The notes: generated from the sequence alone by a model not told the origin. A stretch of 13,200 nt of DNA from Synechococcus sp. (GCA_051439425.1 JBFRWD010000180.1:1-13200), one strand, 5' to 3'; shown: positions 211 to 13,198, numbered from the stretch's first letter. Numbers and translations: made by a program.

Positions 211-291
211 TACCATTTAGGAGATTTCGGTTACGTCCAGCCCTGACTGCGTTAGAAAGCCTTTGTCCTAACTGTAATAGAAAATACTATA
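211..291 (+). repeat. ~80-bp dispersed repeat, copy A (inverted relative to copies B and C)
   Basis: Matches the reverse complement of 1749-1828 at 62 of 81 positions by manual alignment. Shared blocks are CCCTGACTGCG, CTTTGTCCTAACTG and AAATACT. Confidence 0.85.
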
Positions 292-324
292 GAAGCAGAC
301 TGCAGGAGAATTGGCTGGGCATGG

Positions 325-1749
325 TTAGCTGTACAGTTCTGAAAAGGCTAAATCAAAGTACCGCTGGTAAAGACTGCAGCTGATCGCGACCCTATTATTG
401 AAGTAATCGATTAGACCCATGCTGTGTAGTTTATATGCCTGTATTGGATCTAAAGAAACAGGAGTTTGTGATTGAGTCGTTGTTTTTAGAGCTTCGATTA
501 ACGTGTCATTATCTTGAAGTGCAAGCCACAATCTACGTAGGTGATCGCTATAGATTCCTTGCAGAAGTGAGCTGGTTTCAAATAAGTCTGGGAGGGGTGT
601 GTGATTTTGGCTGATTTCGTGAAACGCTAGGCGAATTAGATAGGGATGGCCTCCGACTTCTCGTTGCAATTTTGCAATGTTGTCTGCATCCAGAGATATG
701 CGGTATTTTTGCGAAACTTGCAGAATTTGTTCGGCAGTAAATTCGGGCAGGCTGATCGGAACACCTGTATTGAACGGTGATTGATTGTAGTCAAGAGGTA
801 TATAAGCTTCAGTGGAGTGAGACAGGATAAGCCGTAGCTTTTGCCAAATTGGTGAGATCCGTCCTTTTTCATGCCAACTACGCAGCATGCCGAAGAAATC
901 ATCGGTAATTTCCCGATACGAAAATAGGCGATCGACGTTGTCTAGCGCTAATACTAGAGGGCTGTTGCTTGCATCTAGTAAGTATTCTTCAAAGTAAGCT
1001 GTGCAATTGTCATTGCTACCAAAGATGTCCGAGTCCCAAAACTCATCTAATCGATTGGGAAGTTTCAACTGACGTGTAATTTTGACACATAGCCACCTCA
1101 GCATTTTTTCCAGATCGGTCAAGATCGAGCGATCGCAACTTCGGAAATCTAAATACATGGTGACGCAGCCCTGAGCTTCGGCAAATGCCATCAGGTTGTA
1201 TACCAATGATGTTTTACCCATCAGCCGAGGGGCCTTGATGCGAATTAGCGATCCCGGGCGATCGACGGTACGGTAACCTGTCTCTTCTACTCCCTCGCGC
1301 ACCACATATAGCGATGACCCAGGTGGTAAAGGTCCTTCGATGAGTCCACCTGTTAATTCTTCGGTCGTCTCCACAGAGATGCTGACTAGGTTTACAGCCT
1401 GGGATGTCAGGTTTGGATTGGAGCTCTGTGTTGTGAGTGAGAGCGAATTCTGGATTTCTGAATGGCGAGCTTTCCAGGCCCGTCGGAGTGCTTCGCTAAA
1501 ACTGAGCTTGCTGACTTTCTCGTCTAACGCTTTGGATAATTTCCTCCACAGTGGGTTCCCGACATCGCGATTGAGGTATCCAGCTCCATAGTTGAGATCT
1601 TCTGCCATGCGGTCGTAGGTTTGTTTATTCCAAGCACCCTGCAGAACTCTCACTTCTAAATCGGTGAGATGTTTGCCTGTGTGCTCGAAAACAACAAGAT
1701 CGGCAAAATCTCTCGCCTCCTCCCACGAAAAAGTTTTGTGCTCACTCAT
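325..1749 (-). CDS. AAA_35-family (STAND-like) P-loop ATPase with an N-terminal HTH domain
   Basis: 474 aa. The N-terminal LTDLEVRVLQGAWNKQTY...LWRKLSKAL..KVSK segment matches the HTH seen on cyanobacterial NB-ARC/AAA_35 proteins. Also Walker A IKAPRLMGKTSL, Walker B LVLALDNVD, and AAA_35 hallmarks FFGMLRSWHE, SPFNTG, GGHPYL and YSDHLRRL. Confidence 0.88.
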   Translation of the reverse strand: MSEHKTFSWEEARDFADLVVFEHTGKHLTDLEVRVLQGAWNKQTYDRMAEDLNYGAGYLNRDVGNPLWRKLSKALDEKVSKLSFSEALRRAWKARHSEIQNSLSLTTQSSNPNLTSQAVNLVSISVETTEELTGGLIEGPLPPGSSLYVVREGVEETGYRTVDRPGSLIRIKAPRLMGKTSLVYNLMAFAEAQGCVTMYLDFRSCDRSILTDLEKMLRWLCVKITRQLKLPNRLDEFWDSDIFGSNDNCTAYFEEYLLDASNSPLVLALDNVDRLFSYREITDDFFGMLRSWHEKGRISPIWQKLRLILSHSTEAYIPLDYNQSPFNTGVPISLPEFTAEQILQVSQKYRISLDADNIAKLQREVGGHPYLIRLAFHEISQNHTPLPDLFETSSLLQGIYSDHLRRLWLALQDNDTLIEALKTTTQSQTPVSLDPIQAYKLHSMGLIDYFNNRVAISCSLYQRYFDLAFSELYS

Positions 1750-1828
1750 ACAGTATTTGCCATTCAGTTAGGACAAAGATTTCCAATCGCAGTCAGGGTT
1801 GAACATAGCTGAAATGTCCACAGTAGTA
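1749..1828 (-). repeat. ~80-bp dispersed repeat, copy B, abutting the AAA_35 start codon
   Basis: About 65 of 81 positions identical to 6694-6773 (direct) and 62 of 81 to 211-291 (inverted). On the minus strand it ends ...GGCAAATACTGT-ATG. Confidence 0.88.
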
Positions 1829-2101: not shown

Positions 2102-2932
2102 GCACTGTGCGGTGCACTATCTAAGCGTTTGAAATACCCAATTATTCTCCCTGGAATGGGACAGTGCATCAGAGAACAATCATGGCGAAGCGATTACTGC
2201 TTCAGTCGATGTAGTGCACAACCTCAGATATCAGCTGATTTAATCGCTAGTCGTGAAACTGGGGTGTGAGCTGTCGATTTCCAACGTCAAACTGTCACCA
2301 TGAGGAGTGGATGTGATGATGCACCAATGTATTAGGAATTGTCATCTGTTGTGGAAGTTGATGCGCAAGTAATATTCAGCATCTTGTCCGAGAGCTATTT
2401 TGCCCTATGTCTTAGCAAAAAAATTCGGGGCTCTCACATGCATATGTAGTCGTCTTCTATATCTAATTAAGTAGCGGGCGCAAGCGAACAACTCATTCTC
2501 ATCTAGGAAATTGACATGCCTCATTCCTCAAGCTCTCATGCACTCGCTTATTCCTCCTCGACAATTGGCAGCGATCGCCGCCCCAGTTACGTTAGAGCTT
2601 GGATGTTTCGTGCGAATCACAATACTGCAACAGACTTCTTGTGCAGTTACACCTCCACTCTCCCTGCTCTGCTGAACAAGCTTTGCCAGCGAGGGCATTA
2701 GGGACGTCGGCCGTTGCTACTCCAATCTGTGCTGATGACATGTTTAAAACGGACACCCCGAATAGAGTGAGATTGGTTGTGTTTGTGCCGAAATGTCGCA
2801 TGTCATCGGCAGCTTGATGGTAGGCAGCGAATAGTTGTTTGGTTGGAATCGTCCTTCGAAGTTCTCTTAATGTCTGGTTGCCAAAACGTTACAGATTGAG
2901 TCATTTGTGTCTTGTGTGACATCTCAATAGAG

Positions 2933-3787
2933 TCATTCGGCTGCGGGAGGAACTTCCAAGGCGACTGCGCCCAGTATGCCCTTACGAAAATCAGTCAAAA
3001 TTTGCTGGGCAGCGCGCTCTGCGTTTCCTGAATGCACGCGCTGTGCAAGTTCTTGAATGAGTATGCTGCCTGGTTCGGCTAGGGTATCGAACCTATAGCG
3101 AGAGCACACTTTTTCTGCTGTCCGCGAGTCCATGTTGGACAGCATCTCTAAAAAGCTAGCGGCCACATGTTCGGTAACGTAGCTGGCTTGGCCAATATCG
3201 TCGCAAATCGCCAGTTTGAGTGCAGCCTCTTGATCGTCCAGCTGAGGGGGCAGGATGCCAGGGGCATCCAGAATGTCTAGGTCTTTGCCCAATCGCACCC
3301 ACCGTAATTGCCGGGTGACGCCAGGCTTACGTGCACTTTCAACCACCCGCTGACCGAGTAGTCGGTTCAACAGTGCCGACTTGCCAACGTTGGGAAATCC
3401 AATCACCACAGCTCGCACGGCTCGCGGTTTCATGCCCCGCTTTCGGCGGCGATCGTTGGTCGCTTGTCCAACTTGTTGTGCTGCCTTTCTAATTGCTGTA
3501 ATGCCTTTGCCCTCGCGGGCATTGGTTGGCCATGCTTCTTGACTACGGGATTGGAACCAAGCTTGCCAAGCTTGAACGTGGCGATCTGGCACACAATCGG
3601 CTTTGTTGAGGACGACGATTCGTGGTTTGTCGTTTGTCCATGTGTCCAGGTCTGTATTTCGGCTGGACTGGGGGATCCGGGCATCCAAGACCTCAAATAT
3701 TACATCCACTTTCTGCAGCTGTTGCTTGAGCTGACGCTGAGCTCTGGCAATGTGCCCGGGATACCACTGAATAGGTGGAGTAGACAT
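2933..3787 (-). CDS. rbgA: Ribosome biogenesis GTPase RbgA (YlqF)
   Basis: N-terminal IQWYPGHIARA, DARIP, and circularly permuted G motifs NKAD (G4), GFPNVGKS (G1), PGVT (G2), DAPG (G3); C-terminal DFRKG. Confidence 0.97.
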   Translation of the reverse strand: MSTPPIQWYPGHIARAQRQLKQQLQKVDVIFEVLDARIPQSSRNTDLDTWTNDKPRIVVLNKADCVPDRHVQAWQAWFQSRSQEAWPTNAREGKGITAIRKAAQQVGQATNDRRRKRGMKPRAVRAVVIGFPNVGKSALLNRLLGQRVVESARKPGVTRQLRWVRLGKDLDILDAPGILPPQLDDQEAALKLAICDDIGQASYVTEHVAASFLEMLSNMDSRTAEKVCSRYRFDTLAEPGSILIQELAQRVHSGNAERAAQQILTDFRKGILGAVALEVPPAAE

Positions 3788-4084
3788 TAGCGTTCGTCAG
3801 GACAACAGAGGATAGAGCGAGTTACTGTAAGCGAGGGCAATGATGGAGTCATTTTGGGCTGCTTCTCTCAGAGGAGATGCGTTAAATGTTTAGAACTGCT
3901 GCTCGCATGCAACAAAATAACCGAACGAACTTCGCTCGGCTGTAACTTTGTAGCAACTAGCGTTCAGCATCCACCTGCATAACATGAAGTCGAGGCACAA
4001 ACGGCTGCACTAAGCCAATGGCATAGTCGTTTGTACCGAACACAGGATGTCTGCTGACCGGTGGTGGAACAATGAGCCTCGACG

Positions 4085-4384
4085 TTAAGAATTACCAGCG
4101 AACAAGACTTCTGGGAACTTCTCAGCCGCTTTATCCATCGGCTTTTTGCGACCATCTTCTTGCCAGTAGTTAATCACTTCAGTGGCTTTGTTGAGTAACT
4201 CAACCCTCTGCACATCTGTAATCCAACTCTTGCTTTCCAGTTCGGATTTGATGGCTTCCCAAGCGTTATCGCGGGGCCAGAAGTAATATTTGGTTAGAGG
4301 GCTGCGGCCTTGACCAACAATTTGATCGACAGCGATCGCCAAGTTATCATCCAACCACACTGCCTTAAGCGCAAAGTCTGTCAA
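4085..4384 (-). CDS. ycf65: 30S ribosomal protein PSRP-3 / Ycf65
   Basis: [18 protein letters not shown]...[16 protein letters not shown]...[15 protein letters not shown] signature. Start moved from 4507 to the TTG at 4384, which has AGGAG 7 nt upstream and gives 99 aa. Confidence 0.93.
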
Positions 4385-4574
4385 GATCGTCTCCTGTGAA
4401 AAAACAGTCCGTCTTCCATAGTATCTTGCCGTGCACCTTACTAAATCTCTATTTCTGATGTAACGTGCTGCTTTTTCGCAATCTCCGTTCGCGCTAACCT
4501 CAGTCAATCTATCCCCTCGCCCCCCTAAACTATTGCGGTCATAATAGGTGCCACAACTGCGTGTGTGTGATGGA

Positions 4575-5153
4575 ATGAAAAACTCATATGGTGCTAGTAG
4601 CGTGGCGTTTGCTGCTCCGCTTCTGGCGGTGGGGGCCGTGCTTGTTGCAGTGCCGTCTGTAGTATTGATGTCGGGTTTTGTGAGATCGGTTACGGCAATT
4701 GAGTATCGCGACCTCCGCTATTTGCAAGCAACAGGACAATGTCCGCAGTGCGATCTGAAAGAGGCTGTCTTGACCAATGCTGCCTTGATGGGAGCGCAAC
4801 TAATGGATGCCGATCTGGCAGGAGCTGACTTAGCTCAGGCATCTTTAATGGCATCAAACTTGGTCAATGCTAATCTTCAGCAAGCCAATTTGTCGGGAGC
4901 GAATTTGTCGGGAGCTGATTTAAGCTATGCCGATTTGAGTTCGGCCAATATGATTGGCGCTGTTCTCTGGGATGTGAATTGGAACGGAGCATTGACTGAA
5001 GGAGCCCTGTACAGCGAAGACACTGTTTTTGATGATTCGGTCAATCCCCAACGCTTGGGTATGATTTTGGTCAAAGATGATGAATTGCCCCTTTCTCGTC
5101 AGATTGACAGTTCGGGTGTTGGGGGGCATGTTCGCGATCGATCTGTCCGCTAG
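4575..5153 (+). CDS. Pentapeptide repeat protein with an N-terminal hydrophobic (signal or TM) segment
   Basis: A(D/N)LXX repeats ([45 protein letters not shown]) preceded by CPQCDL and a hydrophobic N-terminus. ATG 4575 preferred over GTG 4548. Confidence 0.9.
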
Positions 5154-5195
5154 TATCGCTCTGGTTACGAGTACTAGACCCATGGTGGCAGTAGC

Positions 5196-6608
5196 GTGAA
5201 GCCTCTGGCCGACATATTAATTCTTTCAAATGGTCCTGGTGAACTCTTGACGTGGGTCAGGCCTGCAGTCAAACAGTTGCGCAATGAGCTTCCCCAAGCT
5301 CGCCTTTCGTTGGCTTTGTCGCCTTGTTCTCATGCGTCGGGCAAGGAAGCCCAACTTGCGACAGAGTGGCTGGGTCTCGACCGCGTGCAGGGCGCCGAAC
5401 ATTTCTGGCCATTTCTGATATCGGGGGTAACAGCAGACAATTGGGATTGGTCTCCGTTTGGAGTCGTACTGTTTTTGGGGGGCGATCAATTTTTTGCACT
5501 CCGTTTGGCCCGTCAGCTAGGGTACAGAGTTGTCATCTATGCAGAGTGGGAGGCTCGCTGGCAGCGCTGGGTGGATGCCTTTGCCGTCCGTACGGAAACC
5601 ATTGCGGCTAAAGCGTCTCCACGCTGGCAGTCGAAGATGTATGTTGTGGGAGACTTGATGGCAGATGGGGTTGCGAATACTGCTCTGCGCAGCTCCAGTC
5701 AGTTGCCTGTAACGGATATTAATCTTCAAAGCCAGACGGAGCCTTTAGACGTTCAGGATATGACCCGACCTGAGCCGCTAACAGGGGGAGAGTCGGCCAC
5801 ACTGCCAGTAAGTTTTGCTCCATCCCTGCCTTGGTTCTGGCAGCCGGTGAATAGTCGAGATCGTGCCGCCTTTCAGATTGGTTTGTTACCTGGCTCTAAA
5901 CCCGCCAAGCTGTCGCTGGGGGTACCACTGATGCTGGCGATTGCCGATCGCCTGCGAGAATCATTACCGGCTGTCCGATTTGCTATTCCTGTGGCGCCAA
6001 CCCTCGATGTCGATGAGTTGGCCAGCTATGCTCTCGTCGCCAGCAATTGGAATATGGCTGCAGTCTACGGAACCTCTGCTGTTTTAGAGGAAGGGGGGAG
6101 CAATATGCAGTTCTCTACGCCATTCGGTACTACGGTGACGTTGTGGAGAGAATTTCCGCCATATGACCTACTCGCCAACTGTGACATTTGTCTGACGACT
6201 GTGGGAGCAAATACAGCGGAATTGGGACGATTAGGAATACCGATGGTTGTCCTGTTACCCACGAATAAGCTGGATGTGATGCGCTCGTGGGATGGTCTAC
6301 TGGGGCTGATTGTAAGGGCACCGGTTGTCGGGCGTCTCGTCGCTCGTTTGGTGAACTGGTACGTGCTTCGGTTTGTGAAGTTTTTAGCGTGGCCAAACAT
6401 CTGGGCTCAGCGACGCATTGTGCCTGAATTGCGCGGACATCTCACGCCACAGGCGATCGCAGATGAAGTGTGTCAGATTTTGTTAGACCGCGAACGATAC
6501 AACCAGATGCAAAACCACTTAAAAGAGTTGCGGGAGGAACCTGGAGCGGCTGAAGCCATTGCCCAGATTGTGGCTGCGCAACTAGAAGATGCTGGAGCTT
6601 TGTCATAG
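5196..6608 (+). CDS. Lipid-A-disaccharide synthase-related (LpxB-like) GT-B glycosyltransferase
   Basis: DILILSNGPGE, FLGGDQF, VVGDLM, GLLPGSK, TTVGANTAEL and LAWPNIWA..IVPEL motifs of the cyanobacterial LpxB-like family; GTG start. Confidence 0.8.
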   Translation: MKPLADILILSNGPGELLTWVRPAVKQLRNELPQARLSLALSPCSHASGKEAQLATEWLGLDRVQGAEHFWPFLISGVTADNWDWSPFGVVLFLGGDQFFALRLARQLGYRVVIYAEWEARWQRWVDAFAVRTETIAAKASPRWQSKMYVVGDLMADGVANTALRSSSQLPVTDINLQSQTEPLDVQDMTRPEPLTGGESATLPVSFAPSLPWFWQPVNSRDRAAFQIGLLPGSKPAKLSLGVPLMLAIADRLRESLPAVRFAIPVAPTLDVDELASYALVASNWNMAAVYGTSAVLEEGGSNMQFSTPFGTTVTLWREFPPYDLLANCDICLTTVGANTAELGRLGIPMVVLLPTNKLDVMRSWDGLLGLIVRAPVVGRLVARLVNWYVLRFVKFLAWPNIWAQRRIVPELRGHLTPQAIADEVCQILLDRERYNQMQNHLKELREEPGAAEAIAQIVAAQLEDAGALS

Positions 6609-6693
6609 GTGTTTGATGGCGCGGATATGTAGCGTCGCTCAACGACCCAACTTCCCAGAACAGGCTATCGCGCACCTAATGTCTGGTGTTAGT

Positions 6694-6773
6694 TATGGTA
6701 TTTGCCATTTCAGTTAGGACAGAGGTTCCGATCGCAGCCAGGTCTAGACCTGGCTGAAATGTCCGCAGTGGTA
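6694..6773 (-). repeat. ~80-bp dispersed repeat, copy C (same orientation as copy B)
   Basis: TATGGTATTTGCCATTTCAGTTAGGACAGAGG...CTGAAATGTCCGCAGTGGTA. Contains the perfect 22-bp palindrome CAGCCAGGTCTAGACCTGGCTG (6735-6756). Confidence 0.88.
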
Positions 6774-6815
6774 TGGCCACTGGCATATGCCAACGTAGGA
6801 GTGATGGTTATTTGC

Positions 6816-6875
6816 TTTTACTCAGGCTTGCCATAAGGGATGTCATCGACCTCCTTTATGGCAAGCCTGATAAAA
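6816..6875. terminator. Long hairpin between convergent genes; possible bidirectional terminator or REP-like element
   Basis: Arms 6822-6844 and 6848-6870 are complementary at 21 of 23 positions around a 3-nt loop, flanked by TTTTA and TAAAA. Confidence 0.55.
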
Positions 6876-6920
6876 CACTAGGATTACCTTGTTTCTATTG
6901 CAGTGGGTGATGCTGTTTGT

Positions 6921-7679
6921 CTAGTTGGCCGAGGGTAGAGGCTGATTGGACTGCTGGGTGTTTAGACGCTCGAGAATGCCAAATAAATCGGCGATTGTGT
7001 CAGAGGGTGGTGCTTGATGACCGTCCAGCCTCATCATCGGTTTGGCGCGACGTAACCACAGTGCGTTGAGGCCAGCTCGTTTGGCCCCTTGATAATCTTG
7101 GCGCTGATGATCTCCAACGTGCAAAGCATTGGCAGGTCTGACTCCTTCCTGGCTCAGTGCTGCATCGAACACAGTTGAGGAAGGCTTCGCTGCTCCTACC
7201 GCTGTAGAAATTGTCACCGAACTAAAGACTCCATCTAGCCCCAAGGCACGCAGCACTTTATACAGGCGAGAATCGAAATTGGAAATCATTGCCAGCTTGG
7301 TTTGTTGCTCTAAGGCTTCGAGAACGGGGAGGGTTTCGGGATACAGTTCCCAAACGGCATCTGTCTCAAAGCTGTCAAACACATCGCGGAAGTAGCGCGG
7401 GAAATCGCGGAATTTGTCCAGTACCCCAACTCGTTCGAACGTTTGTCGCATTACTGAATGCCACCAATCTTGTTCGAGTTGCGGCAGGCGATCGCCGGCA
7501 TCGGGGAACGCTGCTGGAGGTGCTGATTTGAACACCGAGTAAAAATGGCGATCGACCGTTTCTGGCTGGGTCTGTACGCCATAATCAGCTGCAATTTGGC
7601 TGTATACTTGCCCGACACTGCCTCGGACTCTAAACAATGTTCCTACGGCATCAAAGAAAATAACGTCTGGATGTAACAC
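6921..7679 (-). CDS. HAD-superfamily hydrolase, subfamily IA (REG-2/HDHD3-like)
   Basis: Motif I FFDAVGTLF, motif II ISNFD, motif III AAKPS, motif IV HVGD...DYQGAKRAGL; GTG start. Confidence 0.92.
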   Translation of the reverse strand: MLHPDVIFFDAVGTLFRVRGSVGQVYSQIAADYGVQTQPETVDRHFYSVFKSAPPAAFPDAGDRLPQLEQDWWHSVMRQTFERVGVLDKFRDFPRYFRDVFDSFETDAVWELYPETLPVLEALEQQTKLAMISNFDSRLYKVLRALGLDGVFSSVTISTAVGAAKPSSTVFDAALSQEGVRPANALHVGDHQRQDYQGAKRAGLNALWLRRAKPMMRLDGHQAPPSDTIADLFGILERLNTQQSNQPLPSAN

Positions 7680-7780
7680 GGCATTATCTCAACAACTAGA
7701 AGAGTGAAGAGTTGGTTTTGAATATCGCGCGAGCGAGCATCGGGAGGGTTCGTCGTGATCAAAGTGAGAGGCATGCTCAG

Positions 7781-8395
7781 TTATTGGGCTCCATCCTCAT
7801 TTAGAGAGCGGAGAGGCCGTTGTAGCCAAGTTCCCATCACCTCAAACCCGTGGGAACGGTAAAACGTGTGTGCGATTTGATTGCGGCCAAATACCTGTAA
7901 CTCAATCGCATCACAGCCCACGCCGGTACCCCATTCTTTGACAGCTTCAATTGCTGCCGATCCCAAGCCTTGTCGTCGGTATTGAGGAGATACCCACAAG
8001 GCCAATACGTAAGCAACCGGACAGCCAGTCGCCTGACCAATGCCTTGACAAACCCAGACATAGGCCGCAGGTAACTCCGGTTCTATGTCCAACGCTTGCT
8101 CAGCAATGGGAAGAGGAGCAGTTGTTTCTTGAACTTCAGACCCACCATTTGCATAACGGCATGGCTCGATCCACCACACTGGTGAGGAGACAGGATGGAA
8201 ATATCGGTCGACCGTTTGGGCAAGATGAGACCACGAAGTCTGCTCTGGAAAGGCTTCAGCAAACGCCAGCTGCAAACAATGCAGCAACTCTGCACGATCG
8301 CTATCGTTTCCCACTCGCCATTGAAATCCGAATGGAAGTGAAATGGATGGCAGGTTCTTGCGATGCGAAGCAGTCAAGAACTCACCCAGCTTCAA
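7781..8395 (-). CDS. GNAT-family N-acetyltransferase (start codon uncertain)
   Basis: Acetyl-CoA-binding motif A LWVSPQYRRQGLGS and motif B LQVFGRNQIAHTFYRSHGF. Confidence 0.9.
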   Translation of the reverse strand: MKLGEFLTASHRKNLPSISLPFGFQWRVGNDSDRAELLHCLQLAFAEAFPEQTSWSHLAQTVDRYFHPVSSPVWWIEPCRYANGGSEVQETTAPLPIAEQALDIEPELPAAYVWVCQGIGQATGCPVAYVLALWVSPQYRRQGLGSAAIEAVKEWGTGVGCDAIELQVFGRNQIAHTFYRSHGFEVMGTWLQRPLRSLNEDGAQ

Positions 8396-8543
8396 CCCAG
8401 TGTATTTGAGCTAGATCGTCGAGAGGGGCAGGAGCTGCCATGTCATTGGGTAAAAATGCACGAGCACTCACTGCAACCAGAGCAACTGCAAACACCAAAA
8501 CGATGAGCAGTGGGACGACGTACTGAGTGATGAAGGACTTCAT
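8382..8543 (-). CDS. Small single-pass membrane protein, 53 aa (absent from the ORF track)
   Basis: Manual translation gives MKSFITQYVVPLLIVLVFAVALVAVSARAFLPNDMAAPAPLDDLAQIHWVEAG*. It has a clean ~20-aa hydrophobic helix, an A-rich upstream region, and a stop overlapping the GNAT start region. It resembles a conserved cyanobacterial hypothetical with an SARxFLPxDMAAPAP motif (from memory). Confidence 0.8.
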   Translation of the reverse strand: MKSFITQYVVPLLIVLVFAVALVAVSARAFLPNDMAAPAPLDDLAQIHWVEAG

Positions 8544-8815
8544 GTTTCTTCAAAAAACTGTTATCAGCATAACTTGATTCTCTGTATCCTCACAGGTGGT
8601 TTTTAAGTAGCTAATTGTACTTGATGAGGTTTCGTCAACGGATCTCAACAGGGCTGATTAGTCTTCTGTCCACGTCAGGGTAGGGCCTAGAAGGCTGAAT
8701 TGATCGAGGATTTTCTGAACAACATTCTTAAACTCGACGCAATACCATCATCCACGCGGCAGTTATCGCAGTCTTTCTGGGGACCTCTGACTTGTGAGGG
8801 ATTCTTAGAATCTGT

Positions 8816-8837
8816 TCCCCGCTGTTCGAGGCGGGGA
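8816..8837 (-). terminator. GC-rich hairpin downstream of the DUF4079 gene
   Basis: TCCCCGC (8816-8822) pairs with GCGGGGA (8831-8837), about 40 nt past the stop. There is no good U tract, so the call is weak. Confidence 0.3.
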
Positions 8838-8874
8838 GCGGATGCTTATTCACATAGGCTGTGCGAAGGCGCAG

Positions 8875-9549
8875 CTAGTTGGCGTAAAACGCAATATCGT
8901 AAATGTCTCGTGCTCCACTCATTCCCTGAGCGATAAACAGGACAAGGGCCAAACAATTCAACAGAATATGAAGATTCCGCCATTTATTAGACTTGTCACG
9001 GTAGATATTGGGCTGGATGGCCACTGAGAATACCATCAGCATGGCGACTGTAATACCGAAATAGAAGTGGGAGATATACCATTCATTGGTGCGCTCAAAT
9101 ATCGCCCCCCCTCCCTCTCTACCTAGCACAGCATCTTGGAAGCTGAGCAACATAAACCAAAGAGCTGTGAAGCCTGTGAAGACTCCGCGCCATAATGCGG
9201 TCTTGGCTCGTAGTAGCAATACAAATGAAGCAATTGCAGCAATAGTGAACAGAGCGATCGCGACGGATTCAAGCACTGGCCATTGCTCGGCTGCATATAA
9301 ATACTTCAAGCTGGGACGCACTAATCCTACGATGGAGACTCCCACAACCCCTGATGCCAGCCAGCGGCCAATTTTGACATGCTCTACTCCGACGCTCGGA
9401 GGAATTTTGCTTTTTTCCTTCTTGGCTGTAGCGAGCCTGCGCTGACGGGTTTGCCAGGAGTAGTGGGTGACAATACCAACCATTGGGAAAACGAACAGCA
9501 TTGCGATGATGGGATGTACCAGCAATGCGTTGGAGATTAGGTCCTTCAT
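8875..9549 (-). CDS. DUF4079-family membrane protein
   Basis: LLVHP...WQTRQRRL...KIPPSVGVEHVKIGRWL, SHFYFG and WRNLHILLN..ALVLFIAQGMSGARD. Several TM segments with His residues in or near helices. Confidence 0.82.
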   Translation of the reverse strand: MKDLISNALLVHPIIAMLFVFPMVGIVTHYSWQTRQRRLATAKKEKSKIPPSVGVEHVKIGRWLASGVVGVSIVGLVRPSLKYLYAAEQWPVLESVAIALFTIAAIASFVLLLRAKTALWRGVFTGFTALWFMLLSFQDAVLGREGGGAIFERTNEWYISHFYFGITVAMLMVFSVAIQPNIYRDKSNKWRNLHILLNCLALVLFIAQGMSGARDIYDIAFYAN

Positions 9550-10565
9550 ATGGATGCTCTGAATGCGCTCAAGATAGAGGTGAAGCTTTGGATATGGGAG
9601 AGCAGTGTGGAGTGAAACTGGAGGAGCGTCGATCGGTAGCCCGAATCGATTGGGATAGCTGCGATCGAGAGGCAGGAACCAGGAGAACAGAGAATCTCAG
9701 TTCAATGCATTACGTTCAATGCAGTTACCGGCAGATTGCTGTCAATGCAAGCAGTGTGATGTATGCAATCCGAGTTGGCAAGTTCTCGGCAGGGCGTTTA
9801 ATTCTGTGTCCCTGCCTGGTCAGAAAGGCGTACCTAGATTCCTTCTCCACATGTCTAATTGAAGATGTTCCTGATGCAATCACCTTAATCATTCCTGAGA
9901 AAACTCTGAGTGAGTGTGAATCTTTCAATTGAACCGCTTCTGTTGACAGTGCGAAAATGGTGTACCTCGTTACCATTCAGTTTGAAGAAGCCTGGCCACT
10001 TGGGCTGTGCTGAACGTCTGTTATCTTGTAACCCACTGATATCCTAAAATCCAGTGTGCTATTACACTCAAGACATTAAAGTCGCCTCTAAAAACGCTTG
10101 CTAGCGAAGCGACATACGTTAAGGCGCAATCGCTCAATCGGGAGCGAGCATAATCCAGTTATGTGTCCTTGCTCAGTTAAAGGGTAGAGCAAGCAAACTT
10201 AGTTTTTTGTGCCCCTGCGCACACCTCGGATCGTAGAATTTGCCCCTATGATCTCTAAGAACTGTAAAGCAGTAATTAAGTTATCTGCTGGGTTTATTGC
10301 CGCTGCTTTTCGTTAGGCAGCGTGCGAGTTGAGTGAGTGCTGTTGAGCAAGGGCTAGCGAGTGATGTTCAAGATTCGGGGGCTACTCAGCTCTAGAGCTT
10401 AACCCCTCGCTAACCCCGAAGCGGATTTGCGCTACTTGGCAGAGATTGGTGGTTTCATTGCCGGTTTTATCAACCAACAGAACAGGTTGATTGAACGTAA
10501 TTGTTTGCAGTCTGAGTTGTGCTGCTAACGGTCCTTTCCTAGTCCTGAAGAGTTTCGCGCTATTC

Positions 10566-12887
10566 ATGCAGAGATATACCCCCAATAAACGATCTTACTC
10601 AGGGCGGTCCTACTCAGCGCCCATCCGCTGGCCGAAAATACCAGTTTTCATGCCTCATAAGGCGACCCTGGCGATCTGCGGTAGTTTACTGCTGGTCGCT
10701 CTCGTTGCTGTTGCTTGGGCGTTGGGTGAGCCGACGATTTCAGGATTTTTTGCCGCGTGGGATTCGATCGAGCTGAATCCACCGTCTTGGGTACGTCCCC
10801 CCCAAGGTTCACTGTTGGATTCGTGGCTGCCTGTCATTGTTCTGGTGGGCTCAGCTCAACTCATTATGGTGATTTCTCCCCGTCCACAGCGGTGGTCTCG
10901 CTCTTTGGTTGTGATGTTGATGCTAGCGGCGATCGGCCGCTACACGCTGTGGCGCATTCTGGCCAGTCTGAACTTGGTGGGGCCTTCCGAAGGCATCTTT
11001 AGCCTAATCCTGTTTGGTATGGAAATGGCTGTGATTGCCAGTGCTGTCCTGCGTCTGGTTTTGATGTTCGGCATCCGATCGAGATCTCCTGAGGCTGACC
11101 GGATGGCAGAGGCCGTCTTGTCTGGAGCGTATCTACCCTCTGTGGATGTTCTCATCCCTACCTATAACGAGCCTGCCACTATCCTCAGACGAACGGTGAT
11201 TGGATGTCAGGCGTTGGATTATCCAAACAAACAGGTTTACCTGTTGGATGATGGTAAGCGAGCGGAAATCCGCCAGTTGGCCCAGCAGCTTGGCTGTCAC
11301 TACATTGCTCGACCCAGCAACATTCACGCCAAAGCTGGCAATATCAACCATGCATTGGGTAAGACGGGTGGCGATCTAATCGCTATTTTTGATGCTGACT
11401 TTGTGCCGACCAGTAATTTCCTCCTGCGCACAGTTGGGTTCTTCCAAGACCGAACTACTGGCTTGGTGCAAACTCAGCAGGGCTTTTACAATCCCGATCC
11501 TGTTGCTAGAAATTTGGGGCTGGAGAAAGTATTGCCCCCCGAGGTGGAGATTTTCTCACGCCACTACCAGCCGCTTCGAGACACGAACGAGACGTCCATT
11601 TGCTACGGCAGTTCGTTCGTCGTTCGCAGGAGTGCCTTGGAAGATATCGATGGTTTTGTCACTGAATCTTTGAGCGAGGACTATTTCACTGGCATATCTC
11701 TATCTGCCAAGGGCGATCGCACAATCTACCTCGACGAAGTTCTGAGTTCTGGACTGTGTGCTGAGAATATGACTGGTCACATCCTGCAGCGCCAGCGCTG
11801 GGCTCGCGGCACAATTCAAGCATTCTTCCTACGGTGCAATCCGCTTACGTTACCTGGCTTTAATCTGATGCAGCGGTTGTCTCACTTGGAAGGGATTTCT
11901 CAGTGGTTCTTTAGCCTTTTCCGAGTGCTGTTCCTGCTGATGCCGATGATTTATGTTCTCTTTGGCACGGTACCGTTGAGAACATCAGTCATGGAAGGTC
12001 TCTATTTCTTCCTGCCGTTTTACCTCCTCAATCTGACAACGTTTTCTTGGCTAAACGATCGCAGCCGCTCTGCGTTGGTGTCGGACATCTATGAAGTTGC
12101 CCAATGCATTCCCGTGTCGATCGTGTTGGTAAAGGCACTGTTTAAACCGTTTGCAGCCCGCTTTAAGGTGACGCCGAAAGGGGTATCTCGCGATCGCCAT
12201 ATTTATAACTGGGAGATCGCTTGGCCATTGATTGTACTGTGGCTGATGTCGGCCATAACGTTGTTGGTCAGCTTGAATGTGGCGTATGGCAATGGTTATT
12301 CTTTCTTTCTGTCTGTTCCCGATAACCCTCACTTTGTTGAAGGGATGAAGGTAGCTTGGATTTGGAGCGCATACAACATCTTTGTGCTCAGTATTGCATT
12401 GGTAATTATGCGCGATGTGCCCAAGCCCGATTTGAACGAGTGGTTCGATCGCTGCACTCCCGTACAACTGAGAGTTGGTAGCCGCACGCTGGAGGCAATG
12501 ACCCGTTCTGTTTCAGAAGTAGGCGCAGAGGTAGAACTGCGAGGTCGAGTGGACGGTATCCAGTCCGCAGTTTTCCGCATTCCCGAGACATCTGTACTCT
12601 TGGACAGTTCAGTTTTGGCAATCGAGCATCTCGAACACAGTACCGTGTTGCACCTGCGGTTCGATCGCCCAACTCATGCTCAGTTCCGTGCCTTAGTTGA
12701 GTTCCTATTCTGCCGTCCAGGTCATTTCAAAGGAATCCAGGTGCCCAACGAGCTGGGTTCGCTCTTAATACTCATGAAGATATTTGTGTCTCCCATCACG
12801 TGGGGAATTCAAAAGACTGCCGCGTTAGTGGATAGGCAACGCATTACATCAACCTTAAAGCATCCTCAGAAACAGTTGAAGGCGTAG
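10566..12887 (+). CDS. bcsA: Cellulose synthase catalytic subunit-like GT2 (BcsA/CesA) with a degenerate PilZ-like C-terminus
   Basis: DVLIPTYNE, LLDDG, HAKAGN, FDADF, SED, QRQRW (D,D,D,QxxRW), gating-loop FKVTPKG and multiple TM helices. The start is probably ATG 10566 or 10650 rather than TTG 10491. Confidence 0.88.
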   Translation: MQRYTPNKRSYSGRSYSAPIRWPKIPVFMPHKATLAICGSLLLVALVAVAWALGEPTISGFFAAWDSIELNPPSWVRPPQGSLLDSWLPVIVLVGSAQLIMVISPRPQRWSRSLVVMLMLAAIGRYTLWRILASLNLVGPSEGIFSLILFGMEMAVIASAVLRLVLMFGIRSRSPEADRMAEAVLSGAYLPSVDVLIPTYNEPATILRRTVIGCQALDYPNKQVYLLDDGKRAEIRQLAQQLGCHYIARPSNIHAKAGNINHALGKTGGDLIAIFDADFVPTSNFLLRTVGFFQDRTTGLVQTQQGFYNPDPVARNLGLEKVLPPEVEIFSRHYQPLRDTNETSICYGSSFVVRRSALEDIDGFVTESLSEDYFTGISLSAKGDRTIYLDEVLSSGLCAENMTGHILQRQRWARGTIQAFFLRCNPLTLPGFNLMQRLSHLEGISQWFFSLFRVLFLLMPMIYVLFGTVPLRTSVMEGLYFFLPFYLLNLTTFSWLNDRSRSALVSDIYEVAQCIPVSIVLVKALFKPFAARFKVTPKGVSRDRHIYNWEIAWPLIVLWLMSAITLLVSLNVAYGNGYSFFLSVPDNPHFVEGMKVAWIWSAYNIFVLSIALVIMRDVPKPDLNEWFDRCTPVQLRVGSRTLEAMTRSVSEVGAEVELRGRVDGIQSAVFRIPETSVLLDSSVLAIEHLEHSTVLHLRFDRPTHAQFRALVEFLFCRPGHFKGIQVPNELGSLLILMKIFVSPITWGIQKTAALVDRQRITSTLKHPQKQLKA

Positions 12888-13075: not shown

Positions 13076-13198
13076 CTAAGTACAGGACAAAAACTCAAGA
13101 GCATGTAGAAAGAGTGATTTTTTATGCTGAAAGTCGAGGATGACCGAGCGTAGGCGATCGAGTCCATAGCGGAAGATACTGCGTGCCCTCCTGCCATG
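13076..13198 (-). CDS. IS4-family transposase, C-terminal fragment (partial)
   Basis: Translates as HGRRARSIFRYGLDRLRSVILDFQHKKSLFLHALEFLSCT*. Confidence 0.8.
   Translation of the reverse strand, partial: HGRRARSIFRYGLDRLRSVILDFQHKKSLFLHALEFLSCT

Follow-up and report, generated by a model that had tools for sequence, protein, structure and literature searches.

Two copies of a newly described IS630-type MITE very probably bracket an accessory AAA_35 ATPase gene of Synechococcus sp. by position alone

ISY100 is an insertion element of about 950 bp that duplicates its TA target. RUP, a 107-bp pneumococcal MITE, is thought to be moved by IS630-Spn1, and the passages of PMC2229807 that deal with it report IS elements as its target. 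The Correia or NEMIS elements of Neisseria, described in the same source, are about 105-155 bp long, end in TA with target duplication and lie close to genes in hundreds of copies (PMC2229807); where their transcription is treated, they are said to be co-transcribed and able to alter the expression of their neighbours (PMC2229807; PMC2649163). Cyanobacteria have abundant MITEs of their own, among them Nezha, MaeMITE and those of Lin et al. (2011), which were recognised as mobile from filled and empty orthologous sites and whose ends are common to those of intact IS, according to the sections of PMC3184786 devoted to them. That paper, where it turns to the Neisseria REP2 repeats and the upstream repeats of Borrelia, places them immediately upstream of genes, to which they supply expression signals up to the ATG (PMC3184786).

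Here we describe a repeat family found around an AAA_35 ATPase gene of Synechococcus sp. The window, by which we mean the whole 13,200-nt stretch of DNA analysed, is the entire 13.2-kb contig C180 of the assembly (G000; 4.8 Mb, 182 contigs), and it carries the cyanobacterial marker genes PSRP-3/Ycf65, DUF4079 and pentapeptide repeats (Pfam). The ATPase gene (325-1749, minus strand; 474 aa) is an accessory gene and the sole ORF between two inverted repeat copies, A and B. An earlier note, made from the sequence of the window, had claimed an inverted repeat pair around this gene at 211-291 and 1749-1828. A repeat search of the window, which gave inverted arms of 64 nt at 211-274 and 1765-1828 (77% complementary), and the family profile described below confirmed that the pair is real and placed its limits about 10-15 nt further out on the outer sides.

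Copy A occupies 197-291 on the minus strand (nhmmer 293-194, 71.8 bits, E 1.4e-19). It is decayed, with 78% identity to the family consensus (rank 76 of 91) and a degenerate outer end, and the end that faces the gene is its left (TATAG) end, 33 nt past the stop codon, exactly the distance given earlier. Copy B, at 1749-1837 on the plus strand (nhmmer 1747-1837, 82.5 bits, E 7e-23), is likewise decayed, with 86% identity to the consensus and 5 nt missing close to the right end. It overlaps the start codon by its terminal TA (T|ATG): position 1749, a T, opens copy B and pairs with the A of the gene's ATG, which agrees with the earlier claim that the TA of this copy gives the A of the ATG. A third copy, C (6694-6787, limits approximate, plus strand; nhmmer 6691-6789, 96.3 bits), is flanked by an LpxB-like gene on one side and a HAD hydrolase gene on the other (Pfam). 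The mean column identity of the three-copy alignment is 82%, and the three copies match the family model with nhmmer E-values of 1e-19 to 4e-27. A palindrome at 6812-6881 adjoins copy C, and three sub-threshold matches to Rfam miRNA models fall there. The repeat at the contig end (1-106, identical over its 106 nt to an inverted copy at 13076-13181) stands outside this family; its summed contig depth of about 354 vs 12 and the varied loose ends at position 106 mark it as the end of a multi-copy element.

As the earlier note had proposed, a profile built from the three window copies was scanned over the genome. This first profile matched 116 places, and the refined nhmmer profile gave 129 matches in 4.8 Mb, 91 of them full length. 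The family unit is about 95 nt long and non-coding, starts with TATAG (conserved in 69-82 of 91 copies) and ends with CTATA (55-82 of 91), and its flanks are unconserved. The terminal inverted repeats are imperfect, pairing at 10 of 15 terminal positions and over an inner GCCAT/ATGGC block. With genes called by a longest-ORF heuristic and not by a trained gene finder (3,924 ORFs, 80% coding), the 129 copies divide into 110 in intergenic DNA, 11 that overlap the end of an ORF and 8 within ORFs. Run on both strands with RNA as well as DNA parameters, RNAalifold returned no consensus structure for the family, covarying column pairs of the alignment formed no helices, and no Rfam family matched the copies. 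The repeat lacks the features of a structured RNA or a REP-type palindrome.

Comparison of filled with empty sites revealed that the family duplicates its TA target. One copy nested in a second repeat family has TA at both ends, where four of five uninterrupted paralogues have a single TA, and upstream of an FAD-oxidoreductase gene the sister genome G003 has the empty sequence TCTATG against TA-element-TA-TG in G000. The family is a bacterial MITE, being shorter than 300 bp, non-coding and dispersed, with terminal inverted repeats and target duplication, and the combination of short length, many non-coding copies, inverted ends and duplicated TA identifies it as one of the IS630/Tc1-mariner type. 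It is a newly described IS630-type MITE of a narrow cyanobacterial lineage, with lineage-specific subfamilies, and joins the many MITEs already described in cyanobacteria.

By analogy, the family appears to work like RUP and the Correia elements in size, TA target and IS630 link. With RUP, as portrayed in the relevant passages of PMC2229807, it has in common a length of about 100 bp, the absence of coding sequence, terminal inverted repeats, insertion at TA, IS630-like ends in the same genome and a copy number of about 100. It differs from RUP in its unrelated sequence and host, in its excess at start codons and in being known here from sequence alone; its terminal repeat, set against that of RUP, is an imperfect one of five terminal bases and the inner GCCAT block. 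It resembles Correia / NEMIS, so far as the cited passages describe these, in its length of about 95 nt, its duplicated TA ends and its many copies near genes. Correia elements are further characterized by 24-bp terminal repeats, IHF sites, end-generated promoters and RNase III-cleaved hairpins, whereas neither a conserved fold nor a promoter match at the ends was found in the present MITE. Like Nezha and MaeMITE it is small, bears terminal repeats and is abundant in a cyanobacterial genome; Nezha, of 130-170 bp and tied to ISNpu3, is set apart from the ~95-nt MITE by description, not by sequence.

The earlier note had seen no cognate transposase. This holds for the window, where Pfam revealed none, but not for the rest of the genome, where IS630-family elements with related ends are present. 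There are 12 DDE_3 (IS630) matches in G000. Contig C112 carries a 964-bp element that, like ISY100-type IS630 elements, has TA-adjacent inverted ends and DDE_3 coding sequence (two ORFs of 127 and 151 aa), and its ends share motifs with those of the MITE; unlike such elements, the MITE is without coding capacity. The remaining IS630-like copies are diverged, have split ORFs or lie at contig ends, and neither an intact autonomous element nor a single-ORF transposase copy with near-identical ends was found in the assembly. The IS630-like ends open with TA-T(A/T)G, as the MITE ends do. The left ends of one group read TAT-G and then the 11-mer CAGTTAGGACA, identical to that of the MITE and at the same offset from the TA, and the right ends have TAT-GCAGT-GCC and GGACA in common with the MITE's right end. 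Identity is partial, at 14-19 of 32 positions; the better-matching ends reach 17-19/32, a level equalled by 0.2-0.7% of TAT-starting sites in the genome. A split-match search for an autonomous partner found no left-end/right-end pair of the MITE 0.5-3 kb apart, and blastn-short of the MITE ends near the 12 DDE_3 loci returned the known MITE only. The partial likeness of the ends is suggestive, and it points to an IS630-family (ISY100-like) transposase from another part of the genome, acting in trans, as the probable mover of the MITE.

Given a family of this size, we asked whether the pair around the ATPase gene is special. In one account, put forward earlier, A and B are paired recombination sites, and capture, inversion or exchange of the gene between them is the work of an enzyme supplied in trans; in a variant of this account, the two copies carry the gene along as a composite transposon. 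The arrangement has the look of such a cassette: left ends point inward on both sides, little besides the ORF lies between them, and the gene is accessory and non-syntenic in the complete congeneric genome G002. Moreover, of the 21 neighbouring pairs within 5 kb among 127 merged copies, 10 are direct, 8 have left ends inward and only 3 have right ends inward. Against it, most of the 129 copies have no neighbouring copy, and nothing marks A and B as a matched pair: identical at 66 of 95 positions, they are less alike than the average of 1,500 random family pairs (72.7%), 70% of which were at least as alike as A and B. Nor did brackets around single genes, which the earlier note had suggested looking for in their inward-facing form, exceed chance: when the 118 intergenic copies were placed at random by spacer length, 2.98 genes on average received a copy in both adjoining spacers, and 3 were observed (P 0.57). 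The chance of bracketing is about 1 in 1,000 for any gene, and about three such genes are expected. The other two, a TldD/PmbA-like gene and a membrane protein gene, are unrelated to the ATPase gene, and Pfam detected no site-specific recombinase in the window.

Comparison with relatives and other strains bears on the same question. Of the 41 genomes searched, 20 have a match to the protein, G000 among them. The best relative of full length, found in G002, is 60-64% identical and has the same start codon, with T before the ATG; it has different neighbours, with no MITE and no window gene within 19 kb. The MITE family was not found in the complete G002 genome, and G001 gave one weak match only. 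In G003, 121 family pattern matches were found vs 4 for the reversed control, and among the genomes compared only G000 and G003 have the family in abundance. The central stretch of the G003 copies differs from that of the G000 copies, so that the bursts look lineage-specific. With exact 18-mers, a scan of 185,579 species genomes hit one other genome (33 stretches) and gave five single matches, in unrelated phyla. G001 seems to have a related element in the spacer that corresponds to that of copy C.

The G003 contig C126 is syntenic with window positions 2434-12508 and ends before the ATPase gene. The G003 ortholog consists of the 34 last codons, 88% identical, at a contig start; homology ends at the stop codon, the 3′ flank is unrelated and there is no MITE within 3 kb downstream, which counts against a cassette. 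No clean empty site for copy A or B was found, since the G003 ortholog is cut by the contig end and the relatives in G002 and G034 lie in other contexts; at copy C the intergenic DNA is too diverged for alignment. Data from other strains were searched as well. The contigs of X2, which is an independent strain data set, follow the window collinearly over 135-772 and 776-1986 and include both copies. A 155-nt X4 contig of depth 3.4 is identical to 311-413, runs on through the 20 nt adjoining copy A, and leaves the window sequence exactly at the inner TA of this copy; this single thin contig fits a site without copy A. In the contigs of four runs there was no joint between A and B, the single joint found being one that connects the contig-end repeat to a MITE-like stretch on one contig. 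With the 129-copy family, the chance rate of brackets, the unmatched pair and the missing A-B joint all against it, the cassette account of the earlier note did not survive, and we regard paired recombination sites or a composite transposon as highly improbable. The same size of family, chance brackets and unmatched pair support the third of its options, two independent MITE-like insertions, which is the only one of the three to find support. In our judgement, A and B are very probably two separate insertions of a ~95-nt non-autonomous MITE, bracketing the gene by position alone.

The protein itself offered a further explanation of the pair. Its AAA_35 domain is clear (residues 138-466, E 1.7e-132, 441.7 bits vs a gathering cut-off of 27), and it is preceded by a helical N-terminal domain of 137 residues that the earlier note had labelled HTH and taken as a possible binder of both repeats, which as paired operators would loop or autoregulate the gene. 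Residues 1-137 have no Pfam or NCBIfam match below E 0.01, PADLOC gave no match for the ATPase, and a PDB sequence search with the N-domain returned one weak, irrelevant match only. A model of the N-domain built from four sequences predicts a five-helix fold over the N-terminal 105 residues (mean pLDDT 76; >90 at residues 11-90). Foldseek with this model found nothing at E <= 0.001; the top row, non-significant, is a HAD hydrolase, and other non-significant rows are HTH domains of the LuxR/FixJ/NarL, sigma region 4 and KorA types. An HTH in the modelled domain is plausible, so the label may stand in that sense, but a significant family or fold match for DNA binding is absent. The five predicted helices, the weak HTH rows and the position of copy B at the start codon would agree with operators. 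The distribution of the repeat does not: it occurs 129 times, beside unrelated genes; around the genome's five other AAA_35 or N-domain matches, no copy comes closer than 3.7 kb; G002 has the gene without the repeat; and the repeat itself has transposable-element ends and a TA duplication. The proposal of paired operators was abandoned on these grounds, and we find it scarcely credible.

Two separate MITE insertions leave the position of copy B to be considered, as it belongs to a wider pattern. The earlier note had predicted that ATGs would be enriched at the TA end. Among left ends in G000, 12 of 108 are followed by TG, and 7 of these ATGs open ORFs of 156-474 codons; right ends are followed by TG in 7 of 111 cases, in which at most 17 codons are open and no long ORF begins (0/111). 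The abutted genes encode an alpha/beta hydrolase, LysE, a YiiD-type thioesterase, DJ-1/PfpI, an FAD oxidoreductase, a HAD hydrolase and the AAA_35 ATPase. The six others belong to unrelated Pfam families, the domain match starting within 15 residues of the start in 4 of the 6, and orthologs of the abutted genes begin at the same codon. Six of the 78 full-length intergenic copies abut an ATG (seven if a doubtful TTG call on contig C130 is counted), where a genome-wide null of intergenic TA sites hit at random predicts 0.39 (P 3e-6; 1.6e-7 for 7 cases). The excess persists at close range: of the 12 ends that fall no more than 30 nt from a start, 7 lie at distance 0 (P 2.6e-4; 6 of 11, P 1.2e-3), against a null in which T|ATG accounts for 12.9% of the TA sites over the 31 nt leading up to the ATG (1,031 ATG-start ORFs, minus-strand genes only). 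Both nulls assume that every TA site is equally hit and equally tolerated. The prediction is thus borne out in G000 (6-7 cases vs about 0.4 expected) and fails in G003, where no left end in 94 starts a long ORF and three TA|TG junctions open 7, 47 and 70 codons (P 0.002 at the G000 rate; Fisher 0.016). The start-codon excess is a real but unexplained bias of G000, in one orientation only.

How the abutments arose is partly visible in relatives. The FAD oxidoreductase gene, with its empty site in G003, shows a TA-targeted insertion exactly at T|ATG. A T precedes the start in 4 of the 6 nearest relatives vs a background of 26% (P 0.04), by which direct TA-targeted insertion explains most abutments; the 2 of 6 relatives without this T imply that some junctions may have arisen otherwise. 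For the abutment at the C141 gene a deletion origin was tried and discarded; flanks stripped of the elements align about equally poorly whether deletion or independent insertion is assumed. The G003 copy there sits 69 nt upstream of the same gene, and each copy has the central sequence of its own genome, which favours independent insertion.

The two ends of the MITE differ in ways that might matter to a start codon. In the consensus, the right end shows a GC-rich hairpin of 7 bp that lies 4 nt in from the tip, and this could explain why only one orientation is tolerated. The left end, read toward the gene, is A-rich and holds a five-codon ORF; in copy B this mini-ORF (1746-1763, minus strand) ends in a TGA that overlaps the gene's ATG (ATGA). 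A sigma-70-like promoter match lies upstream of copy B at 1955-1982 on the minus strand (9/12 consensus), from a scan for consensus matches only that found 5 vs 4.2 expected in shuffles; transcription from it, if it is used, would make copy B the 5′ leader of the gene.

These features allow a reading in which the left end is a portable translation-start module, its A-rich unstructured sequence and mini-ORF sustaining initiation, so that copies lying exactly at T|ATG in this orientation would be retained or favoured; copy B would then control AAA_35 expression. The opposite orientation would put the GC-rich hairpin on the start site. Such a module would add to the two insertions and not replace them. 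The one-sided abutment of long ORFs, its excess both genome-wide and at distance 0, the unrelated abutted genes with early domain starts and the shared start codons of their orthologs speak for such a module, as does the ATGA overlap of the mini-ORF stop in 5 of 7 abutments. This overlap is, however, non-significant against a background of 37% (P 0.07), and 78 of 91 copies keep the mini-ORF frame intact wherever they lie. A consensus scan found no promoter-like site reading out of the left end, and no Shine-Dalgarno-like run was noticed. The absence of the pattern from G003, the relatives without T before the ATG and the assumption of equal TA sites in both nulls also weigh against it, and we treat a start module in both respects, as an initiator at copy B and as an addition to the two insertions, as possible though unlikely. 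The fuller proposition, that the MITE is a mobile start-site module inserted or kept one-way at T|ATG, where it swaps the native leader of at least 6-7 unrelated genes, AAA_35 included, for its A-rich end and the overlapping five-codon mini-ORF, strikes us as rather doubtful. REP2 and the Borrelia repeats are the nearest precedent for start-codon abutment in the sources consulted, as presented there; REP2-type repeats are described in those passages as holding promoter, ribosome binding site and ATG, whereas the present MITE gives the A of the ATG only, with neither signal detected. In the part of the literature that our search reached, no paper on start-codon-abutting MITEs in cyanobacteria was found.

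Returning to two MITE insertions as the preferred explanation, the history of the locus may be pictured as follows. Insertions A and B would have landed in the intergenic regions on either side of the accessory AAA_35 gene, and landing in both flanking spacers brackets a gene by position alone. Copy B would have entered a TA whose T preceded the start codon and whose A belonged to the ATG; duplication of this TA rebuilt the ATG, leaving the reading frame intact, and copy B would now be the DNA directly upstream of the gene. The TA is the sole duplication, and it fits two single insertions as well as one composite move via the outer ends. Family membership, copy number, TA duplication, the chance rate of brackets and the lack of repeats at the G002 relative are direct results; the IS630-type transposase as mover, the order and independence of insertions A and B and any effect on AAA_35 expression are inferred.

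Most probably the bracket around this gene is a side effect of a burst of MITE insertions into a compact genome, and neither a cassette nor an operator system. The family is of practical consequence too, as it breaks assemblies and can mislead annotation. If the excess at start codons reflects function, the MITE would offer a simple case, taken from nature, of a mobile element that supplies a translation-start context; and were the start-module reading true, a selfish element would be rewiring translation initiation genome-wide.

The two ends of the window carry a 106-nt repeat (1-106 and 13076-13181), the copies being inverted to each other and 100% identical. Depth at this repeat, summed over contigs, was ~354 compared with 12 for the remainder, and past position 106 the repeat is followed by numerous differing sequences. 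The contig-end repeats are the termini of a multi-copy insertion sequence, by which the assembly was broken at both sides. In many other cyanobacteria the AAA_35 ATPase gene adjoins a paralogous NTPase gene of 1,000-1,300 aa, as exemplified by the AAA_35 relatives at G039:C69:197675-199497, G032:C28:4190-6058 and G036:C10:37212-38932 (genome:contig:positions); the Synechococcus gene has no adjoining NTPase partner on its contig, which stops 324 nt past the gene. The 1.1-kb gap on its other side, from MITE copy B to the GTPase gene, contains a 79-aa ORF (1851-2090, + strand) for which Pfam gave no match, and positions 2434-2691 are 80% conserved in the sister genome G003.

Analysis of the bases flanking the ~95-nt TA-duplicating MITE revealed T as the first base beyond the left-end TA in 47 of 108 copies in the Synechococcus genome, versus 25 of 94 in G003, while the outer flanking base of the right end displayed little bias. 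This left/right asymmetry is unpredicted by a symmetric TA-target model.

Another dispersed ~95-nt repeat family, distinct from this MITE, was observed in the same genome, with 40-95 BLAST matches for each flank query and termini near GGCAATCCGCTATGGAGA... and ...GGATTGCCATAC; example sites include C156:33190-33460, C92:41395-41490 and C143:31567-31663, among others. Its copies often adjoin or surround those of the first family, and the two MITE families are therefore nested in one another.

Thirty nucleotides past MITE copy C (6694-6787), between convergent genes, lies a 28-nt near-perfect palindrome (86%; 6817-6875), which is probably a bidirectional terminator hairpin; its three miRNA-model matches were all sub-threshold. 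The spacer of copy C itself appears to be occupied in genome G001 as well, where locus L033 (contig C27) seems to hold a related element at 1237-1315. Similarly, the MITE abutting the ATG of the hydrolase gene on contig C141 has a counterpart upstream of the hydrolase gene at L134 (contig C26 of G003), the G003 element lying 69 nt further from the ATG. The same intergenic spacer holds related elements in different species, each with a central sequence specific to its genome, and it looks as though the same spacers have been hit repeatedly by independent insertions.
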